The position numbers and the translations under genes are program-made. A stretch of DNA of 64,000 nucleotides, from assembly GCF_002854065.1 (NCBI RefSeq), contig NZ_CP024147.1; one strand, given 5' to 3'. Shown piece after piece: positions 15,348-30,293 of this stretch (positions are counted from its first letter, which is position 1; each line of letters begins with the position of its first letter). This stretch comes from Escherichia coli (GTDB taxonomy: Bacteria > Pseudomonadota > Gammaproteobacteria > Enterobacterales > Enterobacteriaceae). The notes under the pieces were generated by a model, which saw nothing but the letters and a program-made list of their open reading frames with translations, was not told the origin of the DNA and did not search any database.

Positions 15348-15489
15348 AATCTTTCCTCGCTTAAAAAACAAGACGCCATATCATAGCAGCCAGCCTCTTG
15401 ATACCCAATCTCTTGCTTCTGGAAAAACGCGGTAGGTGATGCTGCCAACTTACTGATTTAGTGTATGATGGTGTTTTTGAGGTGCTCCA

Positions 15490-15765
15490 GTGGCTTCTGT
15501 TTCTATCAGCTGTCCCTCCTGTTCAGCTACTGACGGGGTGGTGCGTAACGGCAAAAGCACTGCCGGACATCAGCGCTATCTCTGCTCTCACTGCCGTAAA
15601 ACATGGCAACTGCAGTTCACTTACACCGCTTCTCAACCCGGTACGCACCAGAAAATCATTGATATGGCCATGAATGGCGTTGGATGCCGGGCAACCGCCC
15701 GCATTATGGGCGTTGGCCTCAACACGATTTTCCGCCATTTAAAAAACTCAGGCCGCAGTCGGTAA
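15490..15765 (+). CDS. insA: IS1 protein InsA
   Basis: Protein identical to the other two InsA copies; GTG start. Confidence 0.95.
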
Positions 15766-16187
15766 CCTCGCGCATACAGCCGGGCAGTGACGTCATCGTC
15801 TGCGCGGAAATGGACGAACAGTGGGGATACGTCGGGGCTAAATCGCGCCAGCGCTGGCTGTTTTACGCGTATGACAGGCTCCGGAAGACGGTTGTTGCGC
15901 ACGTATTCGGTGAACGCACTATGGCGACGCTGGGGCGTCTTATGAGCCTGCTGTCACCCTTTGACGTGGTGATATGGATGACGGATGGCTGGCCGCTGTA
16001 TGAATCCCGCCTGAAGGGAAAGCTGCACGTAATCAGCAAGCGATATACGCAGCGAATTGAGCGGCATAACCTGAATCTGAGGCAGCACCTGGCACGGCTG
16101 GGACGGAAGTCGCTGTCGTTCTCAAAATCGGTGGAGCTGCATGACAAAGTCATCGGGCATTATCTGAACATAAAACACTATCAATAA
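15684..16187 (+). CDS. insB: IS1 transposase InsB
   Basis: Protein identical to the other two InsB copies. Confidence 0.95.
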
Positions 16188-16468
16188 GTTGGAGTCATTA
16201 CCAACGCGGTAATAGAGAAAGAGGTTAATTTCATTTGGCAAAGGGAAGTATCATCAGCAAAATTTTCGCTGTAGAGGTATCGAATTTCCTGACTTTTTTA
16301 CCCTATTTCCCATCCTGATGCGTAATAATCCCAATTTATCACATTGATTTTATCGCCACTCATATTGATACGTATCACTGTCCCTATTCAGAGTCCTGTT
16401 TCGTATCATATCTGTGTTTTTTTAACGTCATCACACTTCCTTCCTCCCCTAACGCTTATCGTCGTTTC

Positions 16469-20241: not shown

Positions 20242-22020
20242 TTATGTGTTTAACAACTCATATTTCTTAATCTTGCGATAGAGCGTAGCAATGCCGATGC
20301 CCAGTTCATCAGCAACTTGCTTCTTGCTGTTATGACGTGAAAGCGCCTCGCGGATCATTTGCTTTTCCATCTCCTCCAGCGCCGTGCCGCCCGCATCATC
20401 GAGTGACAGGTGTGCCTCAGTGACCTCTGTTACATCACTTTGCTCCGTTGTGCCATTATTCAGCAGATTTGGCGGCAATAGCGTGCTGTCGATAACTTCA
20501 CCTGAAGGAACAACGTTAACCAGATATTCCATCAAATTGCTTAACTCGCGCAGGTTTCCGGGCCAACGATGCTTACGCAATATTTCGACGACATCGGGAG
20601 CAATGCCAGGATAAACCGATCCCAGACGACGGGTATGCAGATGTAAAAAGTAATGCACCAGTAGTTCAATATCTTCCTGACGTTCACGCAGCGGTGGCAG
20701 AGTTATCGGGATAACATTAAGTCGGTAGAAGAGATCTTCGCGGAATTTACCTTCGGCAATGAACTGGGCCAAATTCTGGTTAGTTGCAGAAATGATGCGA
20801 ATGTCGACTTGTATTGGGCTACTGGCACCAATCGGCAGAATTTCACGTGCCTCAATAGCGCGCAGTAATTTAGCCTGCAACATTAATGGCATATCACCTA
20901 TTTCATCTAGAAACAGCGTGCCCGTATTCGCCGCCTGAATCAACCCTGTTTTACCGTTGGCAGAAGCGCCAGTAAATGCGCCTTTAACATAACCGAACAG
21001 TTCGCTCTCCAGAAGCTGCTCCGGAATCGCGGCACAGTTGATAGCAATAAAGGGTTTATTCCGTCTTCCGCTCAACTTATGGATTGCACGGGCGACGACT
21101 TCTTTACCCGTGCCGCTTTCACCAACCACCATAACGCTGGATGGGCTGGGTGCAATACGGCTAATGAGTCGTTTTAATTGCCGCATAACACGGCACTCGC
21201 CAACCAATTGTTCAATATGCGGTTCATCAGGTGCATTTGCTACAGAAAAACTGGTATGCGATTGGTGAAACGCCATTAAAAATAATTGTCGGCCCTGAAT
21301 GTTATGCAATTGGCCAATGATTAATTCACTTTTATCGTCCCACGAAACAATATGCTGCATATGTCCATGGGTAAAATTACTCTCAAATGTTAATGGTCTG
21401 AAACGGATAGGTTTCCCAATAATATTATTTTGTACAATACCAAGTGTTTTTAAGGCAGTCTGATTAACAAACTGAACCCGACTTTCATCATCAACAACTA
21501 ATACGCCCTGATCCATATTATCGATCATGGTCGCGAATATTTTACTGATGTTATCTCCTGGCCCCTGATCCTCCAGAAGTTTCGAAACAAAAATGGTGGA
21601 TATATGGCGAACATAATCAGAAAATTCGCGTAAATTATCACTGATATGCTCTTGTTGCTCGTGGGTAACGGCAATCAAACTTATCACCCCAACACAACGA
21701 TCCTGTAAAATGACAGGCGTACCCAGAAATGCTTTTTCGCGGCAATTTTCTTTACTATCGCAACCTTCGCAAAGGGGATCGAAGCGAGACTGTGTCACAA
21801 CTTTTTCAGTTTTCGTTTCCAGGACGTGGCGGAGCAGGCGTGAGTTGCCGCTCAACTGGCGACCAAGAAACTTCCCATACGCGCCAGTTCCGGCGACGCG
21901 ACACAAGTTTTCATCAACGATCTCAACCTCAAGCTGCAAAACGCTGGCAAGCATTCTGGCAAAACGCTGAATTGTCGGTTGAATTTGCATCAATACTGAC
22001 TGCGTAGTAGCAAGCTCCAT
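20242..22020 (-). CDS. ygeV: Sigma-54-dependent transcriptional activator (enhancer-binding protein)
   Basis: 592-aa ORF with central AAA+ domain (VVGESGTGKE Walker A; GAFTGA motif) and C-terminal HTH. Confidence 0.92.
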   Translation of the reverse strand: MELATTQSVLMQIQPTIQRFARMLASVLQLEVEIVDENLCRVAGTGAYGKFLGRQLSGNSRLLRHVLETKTEKVVTQSRFDPLCEGCDSKENCREKAFLGTPVILQDRCVGVISLIAVTHEQQEHISDNLREFSDYVRHISTIFVSKLLEDQGPGDNISKIFATMIDNMDQGVLVVDDESRVQFVNQTALKTLGIVQNNIIGKPIRFRPLTFESNFTHGHMQHIVSWDDKSELIIGQLHNIQGRQLFLMAFHQSHTSFSVANAPDEPHIEQLVGECRVMRQLKRLISRIAPSPSSVMVVGESGTGKEVVARAIHKLSGRRNKPFIAINCAAIPEQLLESELFGYVKGAFTGASANGKTGLIQAANTGTLFLDEIGDMPLMLQAKLLRAIEAREILPIGASSPIQVDIRIISATNQNLAQFIAEGKFREDLFYRLNVIPITLPPLRERQEDIELLVHYFLHLHTRRLGSVYPGIAPDVVEILRKHRWPGNLRELSNLMEYLVNVVPSGEVIDSTLLPPNLLNNGTTEQSDVTEVTEAHLSLDDAGGTALEEMEKQMIREALSRHNSKKQVADELGIGIATLYRKIKKYELLNT

Positions 22021-22389
22021 AGCTTTACCTTCCAGACTTACTTAAAAGTCGATCATTGAAGACGTTGATGGTTCACAGATCATGATGATATTAACTCAGG
22101 CGAAATTGGCTTTGATAAAAACATAAGATTTTTATCACTTTCTAATGAAATTATGGAAGAGATATCACATTTCTATATCAATATGAGAATTACGGCGGTG
22201 AGTTTATCAAACTGACGAGGGATAGCCTGCCCCTTTATCTTATTTCTGATACTTAGCAGCAAATAAATAACGCAATAAAAAAAGCCAAACGTTTTCGTAT
22301 TTTACAAACAACCGGAAGCTAGCATCAATTTGTGATCAACCCCACACATTATCCGTCAAATTAGTCTTTTGCAGCCCCGTGGATAATTC

Positions 22390-22405
22390 TGGCACACTTA
22401 TTGTT
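22390..22405 (+). promoter_or_regulatory. Candidate sigma-54 promoter upstream of ygeW (non-canonical -12)
   Basis: TGGCACACTTATTGTT: perfect -24 TGGCAC, but -12 is TTGT rather than TTGC; about 90 bp upstream of ygeW. Confidence 0.3.
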
Positions 22406-22495
22406 AGTCCCAGGTATAGCTGTGAAAACACCAATCACTTTGGCAAGTCACAGTGAAATAAACCACTTTGCCTGTCATTCCACTACCGGGACTTT

Positions 22496-23686
22496 ATGAT
22501 GAAAACTGTTAATGAGCTGATTAAGGATATCAATTCGCTGACCTCTCACCTTCACGAGAAAGATTTTTTGTTAACGTGGGAACAGACGCCAGATGAACTG
22601 AAACAAGTACTGGACGTTGCCGCAGCATTAAAAGCACTGCGTGCTGAAAACATCTCAACCAAAGTCTTTAATAGTGGATTAGGTATTTCCGTATTCCGCG
22701 ACAACTCCACTCGTACCCGCTTCTCTTATGCTTCCGCGCTTAACCTGCTCGGCCTTGCACAGCAAGATCTCGATGAAGGCAAATCACAAATCGCTCACGG
22801 CGAAACCGTGCGTGAAACCGCCAATATGATCTCCTTCTGCGCCGACGCTATTGGTATTCGCGACGATATGTATCTGGGCGCAGGCAACGCCTATATGCGT
22901 GAAGTTGGCGCTGCACTTGATGACGGTTACAAGCAGGGTGTACTGCCACAGCGTCCGGCTTTAGTGAACCTGCAATGCGATATTGACCACCCGACTCAGT
23001 CAATGGCTGACCTCGCGTGGTTACGTGAACACTTTGGTTCACTGGAAAACCTGAAAGGTAAAAAAATCGCCATGACCTGGGCCTACTCTCCAAGCTATGG
23101 CAAACCGCTCTCTGTACCACAAGGCATCATCGGTCTGATGACTCGCTTCGGTATGGATGTCACCCTGGCCCATCCGGAAGGCTACGACCTGATCCCGGAT
23201 GTGGTTGAAGTGGCGAAAAACAATGCTAAAGCCTCCGGTGGTAGCTTCCGTCAGGTCACCAGCATGGAAGAAGCCTTCAAAGACGCAGACATCGTTTATC
23301 CGAAGTCATGGGCACCTTACAAAGTGATGGAAGAGCGTACTGAATTGCTGCGTGCGAACGATCACGAAGGCTTAAAAGCACTGGAAAAACAGTGTCTGGC
23401 ACAGAACGCGCAACACAAAGACTGGCATTGTACTGAAGAGATGATGGAACTGACCCGTGATGGCGAAGCCCTGTACATGCACTGCCTGCCAGCTGATATC
23501 AGCGGCGTATCCTGCAAAGAAGGTGAAGTGACTGAAGGCGTATTCGAAAAATACCGTATCGCTACCTACAAAGAAGCCAGCTGGAAGCCTTATATCATCG
23601 CCGCGATGATCCTGTCCCGTAAATACGCCAAACCAGGTGCACTGCTCGAGCAACTGCTGAAAGAAGCGCAAGAACGCGTGAAATAA
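22496..23686 (+). CDS. ygeW: Carbamoyltransferase-family protein (OTCase/ATCase fold), substrate unknown from sequence
   Basis: 396-aa ORF with the carbamoyl-phosphate-binding STRTR motif. Confidence 0.9.
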   Translation: MMKTVNELIKDINSLTSHLHEKDFLLTWEQTPDELKQVLDVAAALKALRAENISTKVFNSGLGISVFRDNSTRTRFSYASALNLLGLAQQDLDEGKSQIAHGETVRETANMISFCADAIGIRDDMYLGAGNAYMREVGAALDDGYKQGVLPQRPALVNLQCDIDHPTQSMADLAWLREHFGSLENLKGKKIAMTWAYSPSYGKPLSVPQGIIGLMTRFGMDVTLAHPEGYDLIPDVVEVAKNNAKASGGSFRQVTSMEEAFKDADIVYPKSWAPYKVMEERTELLRANDHEGLKALEKQCLAQNAQHKDWHCTEEMMELTRDGEALYMHCLPADISGVSCKEGEVTEGVFEKYRIATYKEASWKPYIIAAMILSRKYAKPGALLEQLLKEAQERVK

Positions 23687-23743
23687 CCCCTCGGGCCGAT
23701 CAGCTGGTCGGCCCTCTATTTCCAGAGGCCAAAAGGATAGGAT

Positions 23744-24940
23744 ATGTCCGTTTTCTCATTGAAGATTGATATCGCCGATAACAAATTTTTCAACGGCGAA
23801 ACATCACCGCTCTTTTCGCAAAGCCAGGCCAAACTGGCGCGCCAGTTCCACCAGAAAATAGCTGGTTATCGCCCAACACCGCTTTGTGCGCTGGACGATC
23901 TCGCAAACCTTTTTGGTGTGAAGAAAATTCTTGTCAAAGACGAATCAAAACGATTCGGTCTGAACGCCTTCAAAATGCTCGGCGGTGCGTACGCCATCGC
24001 TCAATTATTGTGTGAAAAATATCATCTTGATATCGAAACGCTGTCATTTGAGCACCTGAAAAATGCCATCGGCGAAAAAATGACTTTCGCGACCACCACC
24101 GACGGCAACCACGGGCGCGGTGTGGCGTGGGCAGCGCAGCAACTCGGACAGAATGCGGTGATTTACATGCCGAAAGGTTCTGCTCAGGAACGCGTTGACG
24201 CCATTCTGAACCTCGGTGCCGAGTGCATCGTCACGGATATGAACTATGACGATACCGTTCGCCTGACCATGCAACACGCGCAGCAGCACGGCTGGGAAGT
24301 GGTACAGGACACGGCATGGGAAGGTTACACCAAAATCCCAACCTGGATCATGCAAGGCTACGCAACCCTGGCAGATGAAGCCGTCGAGCAAATGCGTGAA
24401 ATGGGCGTAACCCCGACGCACGTTCTGCTGCAAGCCGGTGTCGGAGCAATGGCCGGTGGTGTGCTGGGTTATCTGGTCGACGTCTATAGCCCGCAAAATC
24501 TGCACAGCATTATTGTTGAACCTGACAAAGCTGACTGTATTTATCGCTCCGGCGTCAAAGGCGACATCGTCAACGTTGGCGGTGATATGGCCACCATCAT
24601 GGCGGGCCTGGCCTGTGGCGAACCTAACCCGCTGGGCTGGGAAATCCTACGTAACTGCGCCACCCAATTCATCTCCTGCCAGGACAGCGTTGCCGCATTA
24701 GGTATGCGCGTGCTGGGTAATCCGTACGGCAACGACCCGCGCATCATCTCCGGTGAATCCGGCGCTGTCGGTTTGGGCGTTCTCGCGGCGGTTCATTATC
24801 ACCCGCAACGTCAAAGCCTGATGGAAAAACTGGCGCTGAACAAAGATGCCGTAGTGCTGGTTATCAGCACTGAAGGTGACACCGACGTGAAGCACTATCG
24901 CGAAGTTGTCTGGGAAGGCAAACACGCTGTAGCACCTTAA
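23744..24940 (+). CDS. ygeX: Diaminopropionate ammonia-lyase (PLP-dependent, fold type II)
   Basis: 398-aa ORF; AAGGA Shine-Dalgarno upstream. Confidence 0.9.
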   Translation: MSVFSLKIDIADNKFFNGETSPLFSQSQAKLARQFHQKIAGYRPTPLCALDDLANLFGVKKILVKDESKRFGLNAFKMLGGAYAIAQLLCEKYHLDIETLSFEHLKNAIGEKMTFATTTDGNHGRGVAWAAQQLGQNAVIYMPKGSAQERVDAILNLGAECIVTDMNYDDTVRLTMQHAQQHGWEVVQDTAWEGYTKIPTWIMQGYATLADEAVEQMREMGVTPTHVLLQAGVGAMAGGVLGYLVDVYSPQNLHSIIVEPDKADCIYRSGVKGDIVNVGGDMATIMAGLACGEPNPLGWEILRNCATQFISCQDSVAALGMRVLGNPYGNDPRIISGESGAVGLGVLAAVHYHPQRQSLMEKLALNKDAVVLVISTEGDTDVKHYREVVWEGKHAVAP

Positions 24941-24997
24941 TCACCCTATTGGAACTGCTCCCTGCAAAACGGGGAGTAAAAAATCTGGAGAAAAATA

Positions 24998-26209
24998 ATG
25001 GCTAAGAATATTCCATTCAAACTGATTCTTGAAAAAGCAAAAGATTACCAGACGGATATGACTCGCTTCCTGCGCGACATGGTTGCTATTCCCAGTGAAA
25101 GCTGCGACGAGAAACGCGTAGTACATCGTATTAAAGAAGAGATGGAAAAAGTCGGCTTCGATAAAGTTGAAATCGACCCGATGGGTAACGTTCTCGGTTA
25201 TATCGGCCACGGCCCGCGTCTGGTGGCAATGGACGCTCATATCGATACCGTCGGCATTGGCAACATCAAAAACTGGGACTTCGATCCGTACGAAGGCATG
25301 GAAACTGATGAGCTGATCGGTGGTCGCGGGACTTCCGACCAGGAAGGCGGCATGGCATCTATGGTTTATGCCGGTAAAATCATTAAAGACCTCGGTCTGG
25401 AAGATGAATATACCCTGCTGGTTACCGGTACTGTGCAGGAAGAAGACTGCGACGGTCTGTGCTGGCAGTACATTATTGAACAATCCGGCATTCGCCCGGA
25501 ATTTGTGGTCAGTACCGAACCAACCGACTGCCAGGTATACCGTGGTCAGCGCGGTCGTATGGAAATTCGTATTGATGTTCAGGGTGTTAGCTGCCACGGT
25601 TCTGCGCCAGAACGCGGTGACAACGCCATTTTCAAAATGGGTCCGATTCTTGGCGAATTACAAGAACTCTCCCAACGTCTGGGTTATGACGAATTCCTCG
25701 GCAAAGGCACCCTCACCGTTTCTGAAATCTTCTTCACATCCCCAAGCCGTTGCGCTGTAGCAGATAGCTGCGCCGTCTCTATTGACCGCCGTCTGACCTG
25801 GGGCGAAACCTGGGAAGGCGCGCTGGACGAAATCCGCGCCCTGCCTGCAGTACAGAAAGCTAACGCGGTTGTTTCTATGTACAACTACGACCGTCCGTCC
25901 TGGACTGGCCTGGTTTACCCAACCGAATGCTACTTCCCGACCTGGAAAGTGGAAGAAGATCACTTCACCGTTAAAGCACTGGTGAATGCCTACGAAGGGC
26001 TGTTTGGCAAAGCGCCGGTTGTTGATAAGTGGACCTTCTCAACTAACGGCGTATCTATCATGGGCCGTCACGGCATTCCGGTGATCGGCTTTGGCCCGGG
26101 TAAAGAACCTGAAGCGCATGCACCTAACGAAAAAACCTGGAAATCTCACCTGGTGACCTGTGCCGCGATGTACGCTGCAATCCCGTTAAGCTGGCTGGCA
26201 ACCGAATAA
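24998..26209 (+). CDS. ygeY: M20/ArgE/DapE-family metallopeptidase or amidohydrolase
   Basis: 403-aa ORF with M20-type metal-binding regions. Confidence 0.9.
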
Positions 26210-26226
26210 TTACTCTTCACTTATTC

Positions 26227-26251
26227 CCCTCCGGTTCGCCGGAGGGTTTTT
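26227..26251 (+). terminator. Intrinsic terminator or attenuator between ygeY and hyuA
   Basis: Stem CCCTCCGG/CCGGAGGG with TTCG loop, then TTTTT; the hyuA GGAG Shine-Dalgarno (26252-26255) follows directly. Confidence 0.6.
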
Positions 26252-26261
26252 GGAGTTTGCT

Positions 26262-27647
26262 ATGCGCGTATTGATCAAAAACGGCACTGTCGTTAACGCA
26301 GATGGACAAGCCAAACAGGATTTGCTGATTGAAAGCGGGATTGTTCGCCAGTTGGGCAACAATATTTCGCCGCAGCTCCCGTATGAAGAAATTGATGCCA
26401 CTGGCTGTTACGTTTTCCCTGGCGGCGTGGATGTCCATACGCATTTCAATATTGATGTCGGCATCGCGCGCAGTTGTGATGATTTTTTTACCGGTACCCG
26501 CGCAGCTGCGTGTGGCGGTACAACAACCATTATTGACCATATGGGATTTGGCCCAAACGGCTGTCGGTTACGCCATCAACTGGAGGTTTATCGTGGTTAT
26601 GCCGCCCATAAAGCGGTCATCGATTACAGCTTTCACGGTGTGATCCAGCACATTAATCACGCAATCCTCGACGAAATCCCGATGATGGTCGAGGAAGGAC
26701 TGAGCAGTTTTAAACTCTATTTAACCTATCAATACAAACTCAACGATGACGAGGTTTTGCAGGCATTACGCCGTCTGCATGAATCCGGCGCGCTGACCAC
26801 CGTGCACCCGGAAAATGATGCGGCTATCGCCAGCAAGCGGGCGGAGTTTATCGCCGCAGGGTTAACCGCGCCGCGCTATCACGCCTTGAGTCGCCCTCTG
26901 GAATGCGAAGCGGAAGCCATCGCCCGCATGATTAACCTGGCACAAATTGCCGGTAACGCCCCGCTCTATATCGTGCACCTGTCTAACGGCTTAGGTCTGG
27001 ATTATCTGCGTCTTGCCCGTGCGAATCACCAGCCAGTCTGGGTTGAAACCTGCCCACAATATCTCCTGTTGGACGAACGCAGCTACGATACAGAAGATGG
27101 CATGAAGTTCATTCTTAGCCCACCGCTGCGTAACGTACGCGAGCAGGACAAACTGTGGTGTGGCATCAGCGATGGTGCGATTGACGTGGTGGCGACCGAT
27201 CACTGCACGTTCTCAATGGCTCAACGCCTGCAAATTTCTAAAGGCGATTTCAGTCGCTGCCCAAATGGCTTACCCGGTGTGGAAAACCGCATGCAGTTAC
27301 TGTTTTCCAGTGGCGTGATGACGGGACGTATAACACCGGAACGTTTTGTTGAATTAACCAGCGCGATGCCCGCCAGGCTGTTTGGCCTGTGGCCGCAAAA
27401 AGGATTATTAGCGCCCGGTTCCGATGGCGACGTGGTGATTATCGACCCACGTCAGAGCCAACAAATTCAGCATCGCCATCTCCACGACAACGCCGACTAC
27501 TCGCCATGGGAGGGTTTTACCTGTCAGGGCGCGATTGTCAGAACCTTATCCCGTGGTGAAACGATTTTCTGTGACGGCACCTTTACAGGCAAAGCCGGGC
27601 GAGGTCGTTTCCTGCGACGCAAACCGTTTGTCCCTCCCGTGCTCTAA
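26262..27647 (+). CDS. hyuA: D-hydantoinase/dihydropyrimidinase-family amidohydrolase
   Basis: 461-aa ORF from MRVLIKNGTVVNADGQ with the metal-binding HxH motif (GGVDVHTHF); the track ORF starts 4 codons earlier at a TTG inside the terminator. Confidence 0.9.
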   Translation: MRVLIKNGTVVNADGQAKQDLLIESGIVRQLGNNISPQLPYEEIDATGCYVFPGGVDVHTHFNIDVGIARSCDDFFTGTRAAACGGTTTIIDHMGFGPNGCRLRHQLEVYRGYAAHKAVIDYSFHGVIQHINHAILDEIPMMVEEGLSSFKLYLTYQYKLNDDEVLQALRRLHESGALTTVHPENDAAIASKRAEFIAAGLTAPRYHALSRPLECEAEAIARMINLAQIAGNAPLYIVHLSNGLGLDYLRLARANHQPVWVETCPQYLLLDERSYDTEDGMKFILSPPLRNVREQDKLWCGISDGAIDVVATDHCTFSMAQRLQISKGDFSRCPNGLPGVENRMQLLFSSGVMTGRITPERFVELTSAMPARLFGLWPQKGLLAPGSDGDVVIIDPRQSQQIQHRHLHDNADYSPWEGFTCQGAIVRTLSRGETIFCDGTFTGKAGRGRFLRRKPFVPPVL

Positions 27648-27694
27648 CCACTGCCAGGGATCTATACACAATCAAGAATGATGAGTGAGGAAAA

Positions 27695-28627
27695 ATGAGT
27701 AAGAAAATTGTTCTCGCCCTGGGCGGGAATGCGCTGGGCGATGACCTGGCCGGACAAATGAAAGCGGTAAAAATTACTTCTCAGGCAATTGTTGATTTAA
27801 TTGCCCAGGGACATGAAGTTATCGTCACTCATGGTAACGGGCCGCAGGTGGGCATGATTAACCAGGCCTTTGAAGCTGCCGCAAAAACTGAAGCACACTC
27901 GCCAATGCTGCCGATGTCTGTCTGTGTTGCCTTAAGTCAGGGTTATATTGGTTACGATCTACAAAACGCTTTAAGAGAAGAACTGCTTTCTCGTGGCATT
28001 AATAAACCGGTAGCAACGCTGGTTACCCAGGTCGAAGTCGACGCTAACGATCCGGCATTCCTCAACCCGACCAAGCCGATCGGTTCGTTCTTTACCGAGC
28101 AAGAAGCAGAGCAACTGACAAAACAGGGTTACACTCTGAAAGAAGATGCTGGTCGCGGCTATCGCCGTGTTGTTGCCTCGCCAAAACCGGTTGATATCAT
28201 TGAAAAAGAAACGGTTAAAGCGTTGGTAGAAGCAGGCCAGGTAGTGATTACCGTTGGCGGTGGTGGTATCCCTGTTATTCGTGAAGGTAACCATCTGCGT
28301 GGTGCCAGCGCGGTTATCGATAAAGACTGGGCCAGCGCCCGTTTAGCAGAAATGATTGATGCCGATATGCTGATCATTCTGACTGCGGTAGAAAAAGTGG
28401 CCATTAACTTCGGTAAAGAGAATGAACAGTGGCTCGATCGCCTGTCATTAAGTGATGCTGAACGCTTTATCGAAGAAGGTCATTTTGCGAAAGGTTCTAT
28501 GCTGCCTAAAGTGGAAGCTGCCGCCTCGTTTGCTCGCTCTCGCGCAGGTCGTGAAGCACTGATTACCGTATTGAGCAAAGCGAAAGAAGGGATTGAAGGC
28601 AAAACCGGAACGGTGATTTGTCAGTAA
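27695..28627 (+). CDS. yqeA: Carbamate kinase-like protein
   Basis: 310-aa ORF starting MSKKIVLALGGNALG (amino-acid-kinase-family N-terminus). Confidence 0.9.
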   Translation: MSKKIVLALGGNALGDDLAGQMKAVKITSQAIVDLIAQGHEVIVTHGNGPQVGMINQAFEAAAKTEAHSPMLPMSVCVALSQGYIGYDLQNALREELLSRGINKPVATLVTQVEVDANDPAFLNPTKPIGSFFTEQEAEQLTKQGYTLKEDAGRGYRRVVASPKPVDIIEKETVKALVEAGQVVITVGGGGIPVIREGNHLRGASAVIDKDWASARLAEMIDADMLIILTAVEKVAINFGKENEQWLDRLSLSDAERFIEEGHFAKGSMLPKVEAAASFARSRAGREALITVLSKAKEGIEGKTGTVICQ

Positions 28628-28633
28628 TTTTAA

Positions 28634-28664
28634 GGCCGGGTGGGTAATACCATCCGGCCATTTT
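28634..28664 (+). terminator. Intrinsic terminator downstream of yqeA
   Basis: 10-bp stem GGCCGGGTGG/CCATCCGGCC (one G-U pair), then ATTTTCATTT. Confidence 0.6.
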
Positions 28665-28667
28665 CAT

Positions 28668-30293
28668 TTAAGCCACTTCCAGCACTTCTTTTGTCGCTTT
28701 CACGCCCTGATGCATCAACATCATTAACGCCTCAAGTACGCCGCCGCCAATCGCCCGGGCTTTATCAGAAACGCTGGTGAAATCAGCGGTTTCACCACGA
28801 GGATCGATATCACCAATTTTAAAACCACCAACCACTGCCAGGCCGTCGTTCAACAAGCCACGCACCATCCCCGTCAACGGTGCTTTAATTTCATGCTCAC
28901 CAATCCAGGCAATCACATCGCCCTCTTTCGCCAGAACGCCTAATTTCACGTTGGATCGCATAATGCCTGCAGCAGGAGCACGGATCACCCGTCGGGTGGT
29001 ATGCCCCATAATATTGCCAGGAACACCGGTATTCTCCTGCGCACAACCAGAGTAAATCACCTGACCGAGCCAGTGCCCGCGATTTGTTTCAATTACCGCA
29101 TGACAATCCTTCCCAGCAGTAAAGCCCGGCCCAAGCGCGATTGTTACTGGTGCCATATCTGCCCGCGTTCCCAAATTCTGTTTCGCCAGAATAGCGTCCA
29201 CCACGCAAAGCGGTTTCAGTTCATCAAGCAATGAACAGGCGGGATCTACCATCACAGGGATGAATCCGCGTTCGGTAAGTTTCATCGCTTCCGCAGAGCT
29301 GGTTGTCAGGCGAGCAGTGACGCCTTCGACCGTCATTTCGCCATCGAACACGGCCTGGGCAAACGCCACGGTACAACGAATCACTGTCGGTTTTTCCACT
29401 TCCAGCATGATCACTTTAAAACCCGCATGATACAGACGTAGCGCCACACCACTGGCGATATCCCCCGCACCGCGAATCACCACCAGCTGGTGTCCGGAAG
29501 GATGAGAAGGTTTCATCATCAGCCCACCCGGCGCGTTATTTTTCACCTGTAATATTTCTGCCAGCACGCTGATGGCGATCTCCTGCGGCGTTTCCGCACC
29601 TATGTTGTAACCAACGGGCGCATGTAAACGGGCAATATGTTCTTCAGCCACGCCTTTCTCACGCAATTGACGCAGGAAAAGCTGAACCTTGCGACGACTT
29701 GCCAGCAACCCCAACCATGCAATGGGCTGTTCAATGAGTTTGTCGAGGGCTTCACGATCCTGATTATTCGTGGCAATCAGGACAAAATTATCAGGGCGAA
29801 TATCCAGTGCTTCCACTGCCGCACCAAACGACTCAGCATGGAGAAGCGTGGTTGATGGTGGGAATAGTTCAGGATTGAGGCTTTCGCGATAAATATCAGC
29901 AACGGCAATATCAAATCCTAATAGCGCCGCACTCTGGGCTATCGCCCGGTTGACATGCCCCGCGCCAATCAACACCAGACGTGGACGCATACCATGGACG
30001 CTGATAAATACTGACATTGCACCTCCACAATCTGACCCGACAGCATCCGCACCGTTACGAGCCATACGTCCATGGAATAATCGCGGCTTACGTTCCTGCA
30101 ATGCCTGAAGCGACTCTTCAATCACCTTCCGCTCAACCATTCCGCCACCAATTGTACCGACGATAGAACCATCGGCGCGCACTAACATTTGTGCAGAATG
30201 GCGGGGAGTCGAGCCTCGGCTATCAACAATTTGCGCCATCGCAAACGGACAATTTTGCTCTTCGAGTTTTGCAGCCTCTGTGAAAATATTCAT
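28668..30293 (-). CDS. yqeB: XdhC/CoxI-family accessory protein (putative selenium-dependent molybdenum hydroxylase maturation factor)
   Basis: 541-aa ORF with Rossmann-like NAD-binding segments; family and function assignment from established comparative genomics, not shown by sequence alone. Confidence 0.85.
   Translation of the reverse strand: MNIFTEAAKLEEQNCPFAMAQIVDSRGSTPRHSAQMLVRADGSIVGTIGGGMVERKVIEESLQALQERKPRLFHGRMARNGADAVGSDCGGAMSVFISVHGMRPRLVLIGAGHVNRAIAQSAALLGFDIAVADIYRESLNPELFPPSTTLLHAESFGAAVEALDIRPDNFVLIATNNQDREALDKLIEQPIAWLGLLASRRKVQLFLRQLREKGVAEEHIARLHAPVGYNIGAETPQEIAISVLAEILQVKNNAPGGLMMKPSHPSGHQLVVIRGAGDIASGVALRLYHAGFKVIMLEVEKPTVIRCTVAFAQAVFDGEMTVEGVTARLTTSSAEAMKLTERGFIPVMVDPACSLLDELKPLCVVDAILAKQNLGTRADMAPVTIALGPGFTAGKDCHAVIETNRGHWLGQVIYSGCAQENTGVPGNIMGHTTRRVIRAPAAGIMRSNVKLGVLAKEGDVIAWIGEHEIKAPLTGMVRGLLNDGLAVVGGFKIGDIDPRGETADFTSVSDKARAIGGGVLEALMMLMHQGVKATKEVLEVA

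Follow-up and report, generated by a model that had tools for sequence, protein, structure and literature searches.

Hairpins between the cistrons of the Escherichia coli ygeW-yqeA operon and a predicted leaky terminator in front of hyuA

The genes ygeW, ygeX, ygeY, hyuA, and yqeA of Escherichia coli follow each other on the same strand, and the literature is divided on the transcription unit to which they belong. The PRECISE-1K paper uses the wording "ygeWXY operon" (PMC10602906), elsewhere the block is named the "ygeW-...-arcC operon", and in the gSELEX tables ygeW is entered as a unit by itself. The window analysed here is a stretch of 64,000 nucleotides (RefSeq assembly GCF_002854065.1, contig NZ_CP024147.1). 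The block matches 5182 of the 5426 complete E. coli genomes, and the genes are annotated as ygeW, dpaL (ygeX), ygeY, hyuA, and arcC (yqeA). The promoter and the genes are as follows:

22389..22405, plus strand: sigma54 promoter of the operon, CTGGCACACTTATTGTT, with one mismatch to TGGCAC-N5-TTGC
22499..23686, plus strand: ygeW, knotted carbamoyltransferase (RefSeq annotation of a 99.9% identical record; biochemical role from the literature)
23744..24940, plus strand: ygeX / dpaL, diaminopropionate ammonia-lyase (list of open reading frames and annotation)
24998..26209, plus strand: ygeY, M20-family hydrolase (list of open reading frames and annotation)
26262..27647, plus strand: hyuA, D-hydantoinase-type amidohydrolase (annotation and literature)
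27695..28627, plus strand: yqeA / arcC, carbamate kinase (annotation and literature)

In the reductive uric acid (2,8-dioxopurine) pathway, the five genes cover the lower part. That they belong to one pathway had already been proposed in the sequence-only reading and is borne out by published experiments, according to which HyuA, YgeW, YgeY, and YgeX work sequentially in reductive urate degradation, and carbamoyl phosphate from YgeW is used by YqeA to generate ATP (PMC12507026; bioRxiv 10.1101/2025.04.24.650524).

The sigma54 promoter is identical to the ChIP-seq site OS30, which has been assigned to ygeW (PMC4591121), and the divergent neighbour ygeV is annotated as encoding a sigma54 activator. 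Upstream of hyuA, the motif scans revealed neither a sigma54 motif above background nor a good sigma70 motif near the 52-nt spacer between ygeY and hyuA, the nearest sigma70-like match being located about 900 nt upstream within ygeY. An internal hyuA promoter was rejected on these grounds. In addition, the YgeV iModulon includes hyuA along with ygeWXY, and the conversion of urate to acetate is impaired in a hyuA mutant. Because there is no promoter motif ahead of hyuA, the spacer comprises only 52 nt, the iModulon is shared, and the mutant has a phenotype, expression of hyuA is expected to need read-through. A leaky stop after ygeY would give exactly the split seen in the naming of the operon. 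It could also be imagined that the stop is efficient and that there are two units, ygeWXY ending at 26251 and hyuA-yqeA being transcribed from its own, unrecognised promoter. Both the name "ygeWXY operon" and the separate ygeW entry in the gSELEX tables would agree with this arrangement, as would the high terminator score described below. However, the absence of promoter-like sites and the co-regulation of hyuA with ygeWXY speak against it, and most relatives are without a U tract and have the hyuA Shine-Dalgarno sequence 3-5 nt past the ygeY hairpin. Two separate units are therefore improbable in our view.

Three spacers of the operon, and its end, contain hairpins:

23693..23714, plus strand: hairpin 1, after ygeW, GGGCCGATC-AGCT-GGTCGGCCC; 9 pairs, -18.3 kcal/mol, z = -4.4
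24956..24978, plus strand: hairpin 2, after ygeX, with a CAAAA loop and the tail AAAAAATC; 9 pairs including G-U, about -13 to -14 kcal/mol, z = -3.0
26227..26246, plus strand: hairpin 3, between ygeY and hyuA, CCCTCCGG-TTCG-CCGGAGGG; 8-bp stem, 7 of 8 pairs G-C, -16.6 kcal/mol
26247..26251, plus strand: U5 tract of the predicted intrinsic terminator, T5 from the first base after the stem
26252..26255, plus strand: hyuA Shine-Dalgarno sequence GGAG, 6 nt before the ATG at 26262
28634..28659, no strand assigned: end-of-operon hairpin between the convergent yqeA and yqeB; 10-bp stem, tail ATTTTCATTT, -22.6 kcal/mol, z = -6.0

In E. coli, hairpin 3 and the U5 tract together display all the sequence features of an intrinsic terminator, and this element in front of hyuA resembles a leaky stop for transcription. 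The hairpin begins 17 nt past the ygeY stop codon, its stem is GC-rich and, like its loop, within the size range of such terminators (about 5-14 bp and 3-8 nt), and the U tract reaches a tail score of 3.89. In a d'Aubenton-Carafa-style discriminant, hairpin 3 scores +29 compared to about +1.5 for the operon-end hairpin (calculated by hand) and -4.6 for the hairpin after ygeW. The T5 ends at 26251 and the GGAG begins at 26252, so that the U tract directly adjoins the Shine-Dalgarno sequence of hyuA; the GC-rich hairpin with T5 at 26227-26251, which had been noted before, is hereby confirmed, with the T run abutting GGAG directly. For a strong terminator, a tract of five U ahead of GGAG is short, and the T run could instead persist as a U-rich element beside the ribosome-binding site. 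Perfect-stem hairpins of -12 kcal/mol or below that are followed by at least five T in six bases occur at only two positions on the plus strand of the whole window (26227 and 44548), while first-order Markov simulations expect 0.1 such sites per strand. A broader scan for terminator-like elements showed no overall enrichment (14 found, 11.3 expected in shuffles).

Hairpins 1 and 2 are of a different kind. The hairpin after ygeW, which starts 6 nt past the stop codon, had been placed at about 23693-23721 in the sequence-only reading. It is real, spanning 23693-23714, but it is not a canonical terminator, as its tail (TCTATTTCCA / TCTATTTCC) is poor and contains no real U tract, and only 3 of 53 distinct sequences from relatives have a positive terminator score. 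Hairpin 2, which had been overlooked in that reading, is located 15 nt ahead of the GGAG of ygeY. Its tail AAAAAATC does not qualify as a U tract, none of 31 relatives has a positive terminator score, and it is missing where the spacer between ygeX and ygeY is short, for example in Kluyvera and Pluralibacter. The 47-nt spacer between hyuA and yqeA in the window did not yield a hairpin on folding.

All three hairpins show compensatory base changes across Enterobacterales, for which sets of 26 to 43 relatives were compared. For hairpin 1, based on 39 relatives, 90% of the cells are paired and 46 cells are compensatory compared to 16.8 in shuffles. Covariation is present but weaker in hairpin 2; for both, plain MAFFT alignments were used. 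The MAFFT alignment of the ygeY-hyuA spacer had E. coli out of register and the spacer was re-aligned with a covariance model. In this alignment 91.7% of the cells of hairpin 3 are paired, double changes are found in seven of the eight pairs, and 53 cells are compensatory versus 15.5; such an alignment is biased towards structure, but controls with slid partners were nevertheless far lower. Hairpins of -12 kcal/mol or below are present in 46 of 53 distinct Enterobacterales spacers between ygeY and hyuA and in 44 of 53 between ygeW and ygeX, but in none of 41 between hyuA and yqeA; in terms of significant hairpins, the 46 of 53 compare with 1 of 41 in this control spacer. Each hairpin occurs at one locus per genome (in more than 5160 genomes), and 5113 of 5174 E. 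coli genomes share an identical hairpin 1. It is hard to imagine that such elements are chance palindromes or remnants of REP/BIME-like mobile repeats without function. The missing enrichment in the broader scan would be compatible with chance, but the single copy of every hairpin, the compensatory changes in many genera, and the nearly empty hyuA-yqeA control spacer leave this reading with hardly any credibility. REP/BIME elements and mobile repeats in particular were rejected, as these are defined by a many-copy consensus and each hairpin is found at one place per genome. A protein-binding DNA palindrome, such as a site for YgeV, was judged unlikely given that the sequences change while their complementarity is kept.

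The conservation of the U tract is another matter. Among eight E. coli strains with local identities down to 93.9%, no variation is seen in the stem of hairpin 3, the U5, or the Shine-Dalgarno sequence, and the differences are confined to the loop (TTCG, TTTG, TTCA or TTTA). GGAG or GAGG is found at the same position of hyuA in nearly all relatives. The tract itself, whose conservation would support a terminator without defining it, is not conserved, most Enterobacteriaceae having UCU-GGAG or UUCU-GGAG. It reads T6 in E. whittamii, TTTTCT in Escherichia sp. E1V33, TTTCT in Citrobacter sp. MGH106, and TCT in Klebsiella, Raoultella, and Kluyvera. A terminator-grade tract is limited to Escherichia, Hafnia, Morganella, and a few others, and only 16 of the 53 distinct ygeY-hyuA hairpins score as terminators. 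T5 or T6 has arisen again independently in Hafnia, Morganella, Enterobacillus, and Serratia sp. Ag1. As most Enterobacteriaceae have lost the U tract but retain the hairpin, termination cannot explain the conservation of the hairpin, and the conserved function is that of the RNA structure itself. In the Enterobacteriaceae the 3' end of the ygeY hairpin is at a near-constant distance of 11-16 nt from the hyuA ATG, and the hairpin remains beside the Shine-Dalgarno sequence despite insertions of 175-360 nt upstream of it. Also, all three hairpins are stable, conserved, and located where a cistron ends, which are the structural characteristics of protective stem-loops.

It could be possible that the three hairpins act in stability and processing only, either as exonuclease barriers or as a papBA-like 5' cap after RNase E cleavage, and that the T5 terminates little or not at all and persists for a different reason, for example because U-rich sequence beside the Shine-Dalgarno sequence aids ribosome binding. 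The covariation and persistence of hairpin 3, its fixed spacing and position, and the clear lack of U tracts after hairpins 1 and 2 would all be explained, and precedents are known (PMC5927463). Against this stand the E. coli element itself, which combines all sequence criteria of an intrinsic terminator and scores above the terminal hairpin of the operon, the independent T5 and T6 tracts in the four other lineages, and the invariance of T5 among the E. coli strains sampled. We consider a role in stability alone a serious but rather unlikely alternative.

Another explanation, in line with the attenuation suggested in the sequence-only reading, is a regulated attenuator, in which a metabolite, a protein, or the position of the ribosome on ygeY shifts termination at 26251 and hence the ratio of HyuA/YqeA to YgeWXY. 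The location directly in front of a ribosome-binding site and the conservation of the hairpin would suit such a device. However, hairpin 3 is kept in both the minimum free energy and the centroid structure of its 211-nt context, and there is neither a competing fold nor an upstream copy of its 3' arm CCGGAGGG in that context, nor was an upstream competitor for its 5' arm found there; an antiterminator was rejected accordingly. Rfam has no match in 21500-29500 at E-values up to 1, and nothing reached the gathering threshold in seven related loci. Based on the size of ribosome footprints, the distance of 17 nt from the stop codon was judged to be outside the reach of a terminating ribosome. The minimum free energy fold pairs ACUCU (26212-26216) with the Shine-Dalgarno sequence of hyuA. 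Pairing of this kind is disfavoured, as in 39 species the natural flanks leave the Shine-Dalgarno sequence more accessible than shuffled ones (median percentile 0.77, none below 0.1), and translational coupling by its unmasking was rejected on the same basis. Regulated attenuation is thus very unlikely. From the earlier suggestion of attenuation or differential expression, differential expression remains a reasonable expectation given the covariation, the terminator features, and the stem and U5 that are invariant in eight strains, whereas the regulated part finds no support in an antiterminator fold or an RNA family.

The explanation that we favour, and to which we would give about an even chance, combines a single operon under sigma54/YgeV control with a leaky intrinsic terminator ahead of hyuA and with hairpins that probably also serve as protective 3' structures. 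Transcription would start ahead of ygeW, at the sigma54/YgeV promoter, and proceed as one unit through yqeA. The hairpin at 26227-26246 with its U5 would act as a factor-independent terminator and release a fraction of the polymerases after ygeY, so that the ygeWXY message would exceed that of hyuA-yqeA. In the read-through mRNA, hairpin 3 would be placed 5 nt upstream of the ribosome-binding site of hyuA and translation would be normal. The hairpins after ygeW and ygeX, which do not have a U tract, would most likely be barriers to 3'-to-5' exonucleases, and the same may hold for the ygeY hairpin. Upon endonucleolytic cleavage, the upstream segments would outlive the downstream ones. We infer that hairpin 3 terminates transcription partially and that the hairpins stabilise the upstream RNA; as a net result, the expression ratio of the genes along the operon would be graded and hard-wired and not set by a regulated switch.

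Some published observations can be compared with this expectation. In the reconstitution of the pathway in vitro, YgeW and YgeY were supplied at ten times the amount of HyuA, and YgeX at the same low level as HyuA (bioRxiv 10.1101/2025.04.24.650524). This fits a greater need for YgeW and YgeY among the three upstream products, and because of YgeX the enzyme-demand argument is a partial one. In a microarray study of O157:H7, ygeW was the only one of these genes above the 2-fold cut-off, which is a hint of a more abundant upstream segment. We did not find 3'-end, northern, or half-life data for these genes in the supplements of Adams 2021, Choe 2022, and two further 3'-end studies, nor expression data for them in the PRECISE-1K supplements. 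The tables of Dar and Sorek 2018 (PMC5927463) do not contain the operon.

Among the partial intrinsic terminators that lie within operons of E. coli are the rplL-rpoB attenuator and the rpsU-dnaG terminator. As in these systems, a GC-rich hairpin with a U run is located between two cistrons of one operon, and a drop of distal gene expression by a fixed factor would be expected in which neither a ligand nor an alternative fold takes part. In contrast to them, termination between ygeY and hyuA is a prediction, the U run is short (five) and fused to the next Shine-Dalgarno sequence, and most related genera retain the hairpin without a U run. Protective hairpins, including consecutive ones in one operon, have been described for malE-malF and menBCE (Dar and Sorek 2018, PMC5927463). 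Like these, the urate-operon hairpins are stable and conserved, follow the 3' ends of upstream cistrons, and do not require a U tract, and with menBCE they share the presence of several consecutive hairpins in one operon. However, most of the protective structures in that study are inside coding regions, whereas those of the urate operon are in spacers, and the element of malE-malF is a REP present in many copies while the urate-operon hairpins are single copy. In papBA, a 5' hairpin shields the downstream cistron after RNase E cleavage (PMC5927463). Similarly, hairpin 3 is close upstream of a downstream ribosome-binding site and preceded by an A/U-rich single-stranded stretch. With REP/BIME elements the hairpins have in common that they are GC-rich intergenic palindromes in E. 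coli operons, but they differ between genera in sequence, with their pairing kept, and are present once per genome.

The operon encodes the lower half of the pathway by which gut bacteria degrade urate anaerobically. A link between this pathway and the urate levels of the host has recently been made, and work is under way to build the pathway into probiotic E. coli (PMC12507026). If the terminator is indeed leaky, a strong promoter before ygeW, as in strain CBT2.0, would over-express ygeWXY more than hyuA and yqeA, and deleting or weakening the hairpin or the U5 would be a simple way to rebalance the flux. The inconsistent operon names (ygeWXY and ygeW-yqeA) would be settled as well. More speculatively, and with rather little confidence, the ygeY-hyuA hairpin might be an ancient dual-purpose module, which ends or protects the ygeWXY message and also gives the hyuA ribosome-binding site a structured 5' edge, with the length of the U run (0 to 6 U across genera) as an evolvable dial for the ratio of YgeW/X/Y to HyuA/YqeA. 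Evolution would then have tuned the efficiency of termination rather than promoter strength in this purine-degradation operon. In general, punctuation by hairpins is an ordinary way to set unequal expression within one operon. The locus is a tidy but unsurprising example of it.

The start coordinates show small differences between the annotation and those taken from the sequence-only reading or the list of open reading frames. The annotated start of ygeW is the ATG at 22499, with a second in-frame ATG at 22496, and that of hyuA is the ATG at 26262 and not the TTG at 26250.

Of 5426 complete E. coli genomes, 5182 carry a match to the operon stretch (95-100% identity); ygeV, the sigma54 activator gene, lies divergently upstream of it and yqeB convergently downstream. 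The sequence-only reading had placed hairpins behind ygeW and between ygeY and hyuA, and both positions were confirmed exactly. A third hairpin in the ygeX-ygeY spacer, about 15 nt 5' of the ygeY GGAG, was absent from that reading, and folding the hyuA-yqeA spacer of the window gave no hairpin.

Features of the operon in the window
22389-22405, plus strand: sigma54 promoter sequence CTGGCACACTTATTGTT (motif match)
22499-23686, plus strand: ygeW, knotted carbamoyltransferase (annotation)
23693-23714, plus strand: ygeW hairpin, GGGCCGATC-AGCT-GGTCGGCCC, -18.3 kcal/mol, z = -4.4, tail TCTATTTCC
23744-24940, plus strand: ygeX, annotated dpaL (annotation)
24956-24978, plus strand: ygeX hairpin, TGCTCCCTG-CAAAA-CGGGGAGTA, z = -3.0, tail AAAAAATC
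24998-26209, plus strand: ygeY (annotation)
26227-26246, plus strand: ygeY-hyuA hairpin, CCCTCCGG-TTCG-CCGGAGGG, -16.6 kcal/mol
26247-26251, plus strand: TTTTT, followed by GGAG (26252-26255) and ATG (26262)
26262-27647, plus strand: hyuA, ATG start (annotation)
27695-28627, plus strand: yqeA, annotated arcC (annotation)
28634-28659: operon-closing hairpin after yqeA, 10 bp stem

A TTG at 26250 from an ORF listing was rejected as hyuA start in favour of the annotated ATG. The promoter sequence is identical to a sigma54 ChIP-seq site that Bonocora et al. assigned to ygeW (PMC4591121).

In general, the hairpins are a new, well-conserved case of known intra-operon punctuation. A HyuA scan with one genome per species yielded 80 loci, and the gene order ygeV / ygeW-X-Y-hyuA-yqeA is maintained across Enterobacterales, Aeromonas, and Photobacterium. 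Among distinct Enterobacterales spacers, a hairpin with a perfect stem and an energy of -12 kcal/mol or better was present in 44 of 53 ygeW-ygeX, 13 of 52 ygeX-ygeY (25 of the 52 are significant against shuffles), 46 of 53 ygeY-hyuA, and 0 of 41 hyuA-yqeA spacers, the last often just 12 nt long. The ygeX hairpin is missing in relatives with a short ygeX-ygeY spacer. The ygeY-hyuA stem varies in sequence by genus while complementarity is maintained, the arms being CCCTCCGG/CCGGAGGG in Escherichia, CTCCCGTCG/CGGCGGGAG in Kluyvera, GCCCCGTAC/GTGCGGGGC in Morganella, and CCACTCCGGCCA/TGGCTGGAGTGG in Hafnia. In a covariance-model alignment of 42 distinct sequences 91.7% of its cells were paired, with 53 compensatory cells versus 15.5 in shuffles and both-side changes in 7 of 8 pairs; slid-partner controls were just 37-60% paired. 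Plain MAFFT alignments gave 90.3% paired and 46 versus 16.8 compensatory cells for the ygeW hairpin, and 78.8% and 26 versus 12.3 for the ygeX hairpin. For each of the three, 0 of 500 shuffles reached the observed value, and this covariation excludes a chance origin. The ygeW and ygeY-hyuA hairpins, the two searched for copy number, occur once per E. coli genome and are therefore not REP-type repeats. At window 26239-26255, the 3' arm of the latter, CCGGAGGG, is SD-like, and its 5' arm CCCTCC is anti-SD-like; the ygeX hairpin has the matching C-rich-then-G-rich orientation (CTCCC / GGGAG), a likeness for which shared descent could account.

The three hairpins differ in their tails. Terminators were scored with a d'Aubenton-Carafa-style discriminant, whose values are approximate, the energies being taken from modern parameters. 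Terminator-grade scores were reached in 3/53 distinct sequences for the ygeW hairpin (E. coli -4.6) and 0/31 for the ygeX hairpin, and neither of these two has ever had a U run. The ygeY-hyuA hairpin reached them in 16/53, namely in Escherichia (+23 to +38), Hafnia (+38), Morganella (+7 to +47), some Citrobacter, and a few others, the E. coli element exceeding the operon-end hairpin (about +1.5 by hand calculation). Klebsiella, Raoultella, Kluyvera, Trabulsiella, Yokenella, and Pluralibacter, with at most TCT, TAC or TGTT between stem and GGAG/GAGG, were negative, as were Kosakonia, Buttiauxella, and Edwardsiella. The distance from hairpin 3' end to ATG is a near-constant 11-16 nt in Enterobacteriaceae. 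Eight E. coli strains (to 93.9% local identity) share stem, T5, SD, and spacer unchanged with a TTCG, TTTG, TTCA or TTTA loop, and the surrounding 41 nt are at least 99% identical in 4216 of 5163 genomes. Spacer insertions of 175-360 nt, some containing GGGGAGAGGGTTAGGGTGAGGGG-type repeat units, occur in Escherichia sp. E1V33, E. whittamii, Klebsiella indica, and Serratia oryzae (related hyuA loci L002 5771-6000, L051 5783-6000, L008 5741-6000, and L048 5620-6000, locus-internal coordinates); despite these upstream insertions the hairpin still adjoins the hyuA SD in the two Escherichia and the Serratia.

Judged by sequence, the E. coli element before hyuA has all features of an intrinsic terminator. 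Only two perfect-stem hairpins (-12 kcal/mol or better) trailed by at least five T in six bases are found on the plus strand of the 64-kb window, where Markov simulations expect 0.1. The predicted terminator cannot be fully efficient, because motif scans of the 52-nt spacer and its vicinity turned up nothing promoter-like for hyuA, the YgeV iModulon contains hyuA together with the co-regulated ygeWXY (PMC10602906), and urate-to-acetate conversion is impaired in a hyuA mutant. The missing promoter-like site also speaks against a fully efficient terminator combined with a hidden hyuA promoter, which is thus quite unlikely. A leaky stop, as predicted, would account for the split naming in the literature, 'ygeWXY operon' (PMC10602906) versus 'ygeW-...-arcC operon'. 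That the element only stabilises RNA, with no real termination, is a plausible but less likely alternative. The sequence-only reading had proposed attenuation or differential expression and is partly supported; differential expression is a reasonable view, but a regulated attenuator is highly improbable, as an Rfam search and a fold of the surrounding sequence revealed neither antiterminator fold nor sensor. Ribosome-dependent unmasking of the hyuA SD, a form of this idea, failed its test.

Across genera the conserved feature is the hairpin and not the U run. Since, in addition, two of the three hairpins lack a U run, their common function would most likely be RNA-level shielding of upstream segments from 3' exonucleases. 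Such protection is documented for malE-malF and for menBCE, which has consecutive hairpins (PMC5927463). Leaky termination and shielding together would set a hard-wired gradient, with ygeW, then ygeX and ygeY, at levels above hyuA-yqeA. The earlier guess that the five genes form one pathway was right and is now established: in 2025 two groups showed ring opening of the hydantoin by HyuA, loss of both ureido groups through YgeW and YgeY, and conversion of diaminopropionate to pyruvate by YgeX, and carbamoyl phosphate from YgeW yields ATP via YqeA (PMC12507026; bioRxiv 10.1101/2025.04.24.650524). The in vitro reconstitution used YgeW and YgeY at ten-fold the HyuA amount and YgeX at a low level (bioRxiv 10.1101/2025.04.24.650524); the former matches the predicted gradient but the latter does not. 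In an O157:H7 array study ygeW alone passed the cut-off, a weak hint at the gradient. The hairpins are useful for annotation and engineering of the urate operon, and will not surprise the specialist.

The divergent ygeV-ygeW spacer (window 22021-22498) is A+T-rich and 478 nt long; one paper reports a CRP site in it (PMC12507026), and YgeV activator sites presumably lie there too. An IS1-sized element is present in three identical copies of 768-770 bp (window 7421-8188, 8212-8979, and 15435-16202), each with 91-aa and 167-aa ORFs; the copies flank a segment just upstream of xdhA in a composite-transposon-like manner, two in tandem 791 bp apart and the third inverted about 6.5 kb off. In Photobacterium species a bipartite hairpin about 75 nt long is conserved after ygeY, TTCCGTCCCGAGGG...CCCCTCGGGATGG then ATTTTC (locus L072, about 5755-5830; same place in L061, L073, L074, and L078-L081), with compensatory changes in L073, a single copy per locus, no Rfam family match, and a second, perfect 20 bp hairpin behind it. 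Serratia marcescens, Symbiopectobacterium, and Lonsdalea (loci L059, L070, and L076) encode a reduced ygeV-ygeX-hyuA set without ygeW, ygeY, and yqeA; at a HyuA identity of about 65-67%, these loci may represent a different hydantoin-type pathway.
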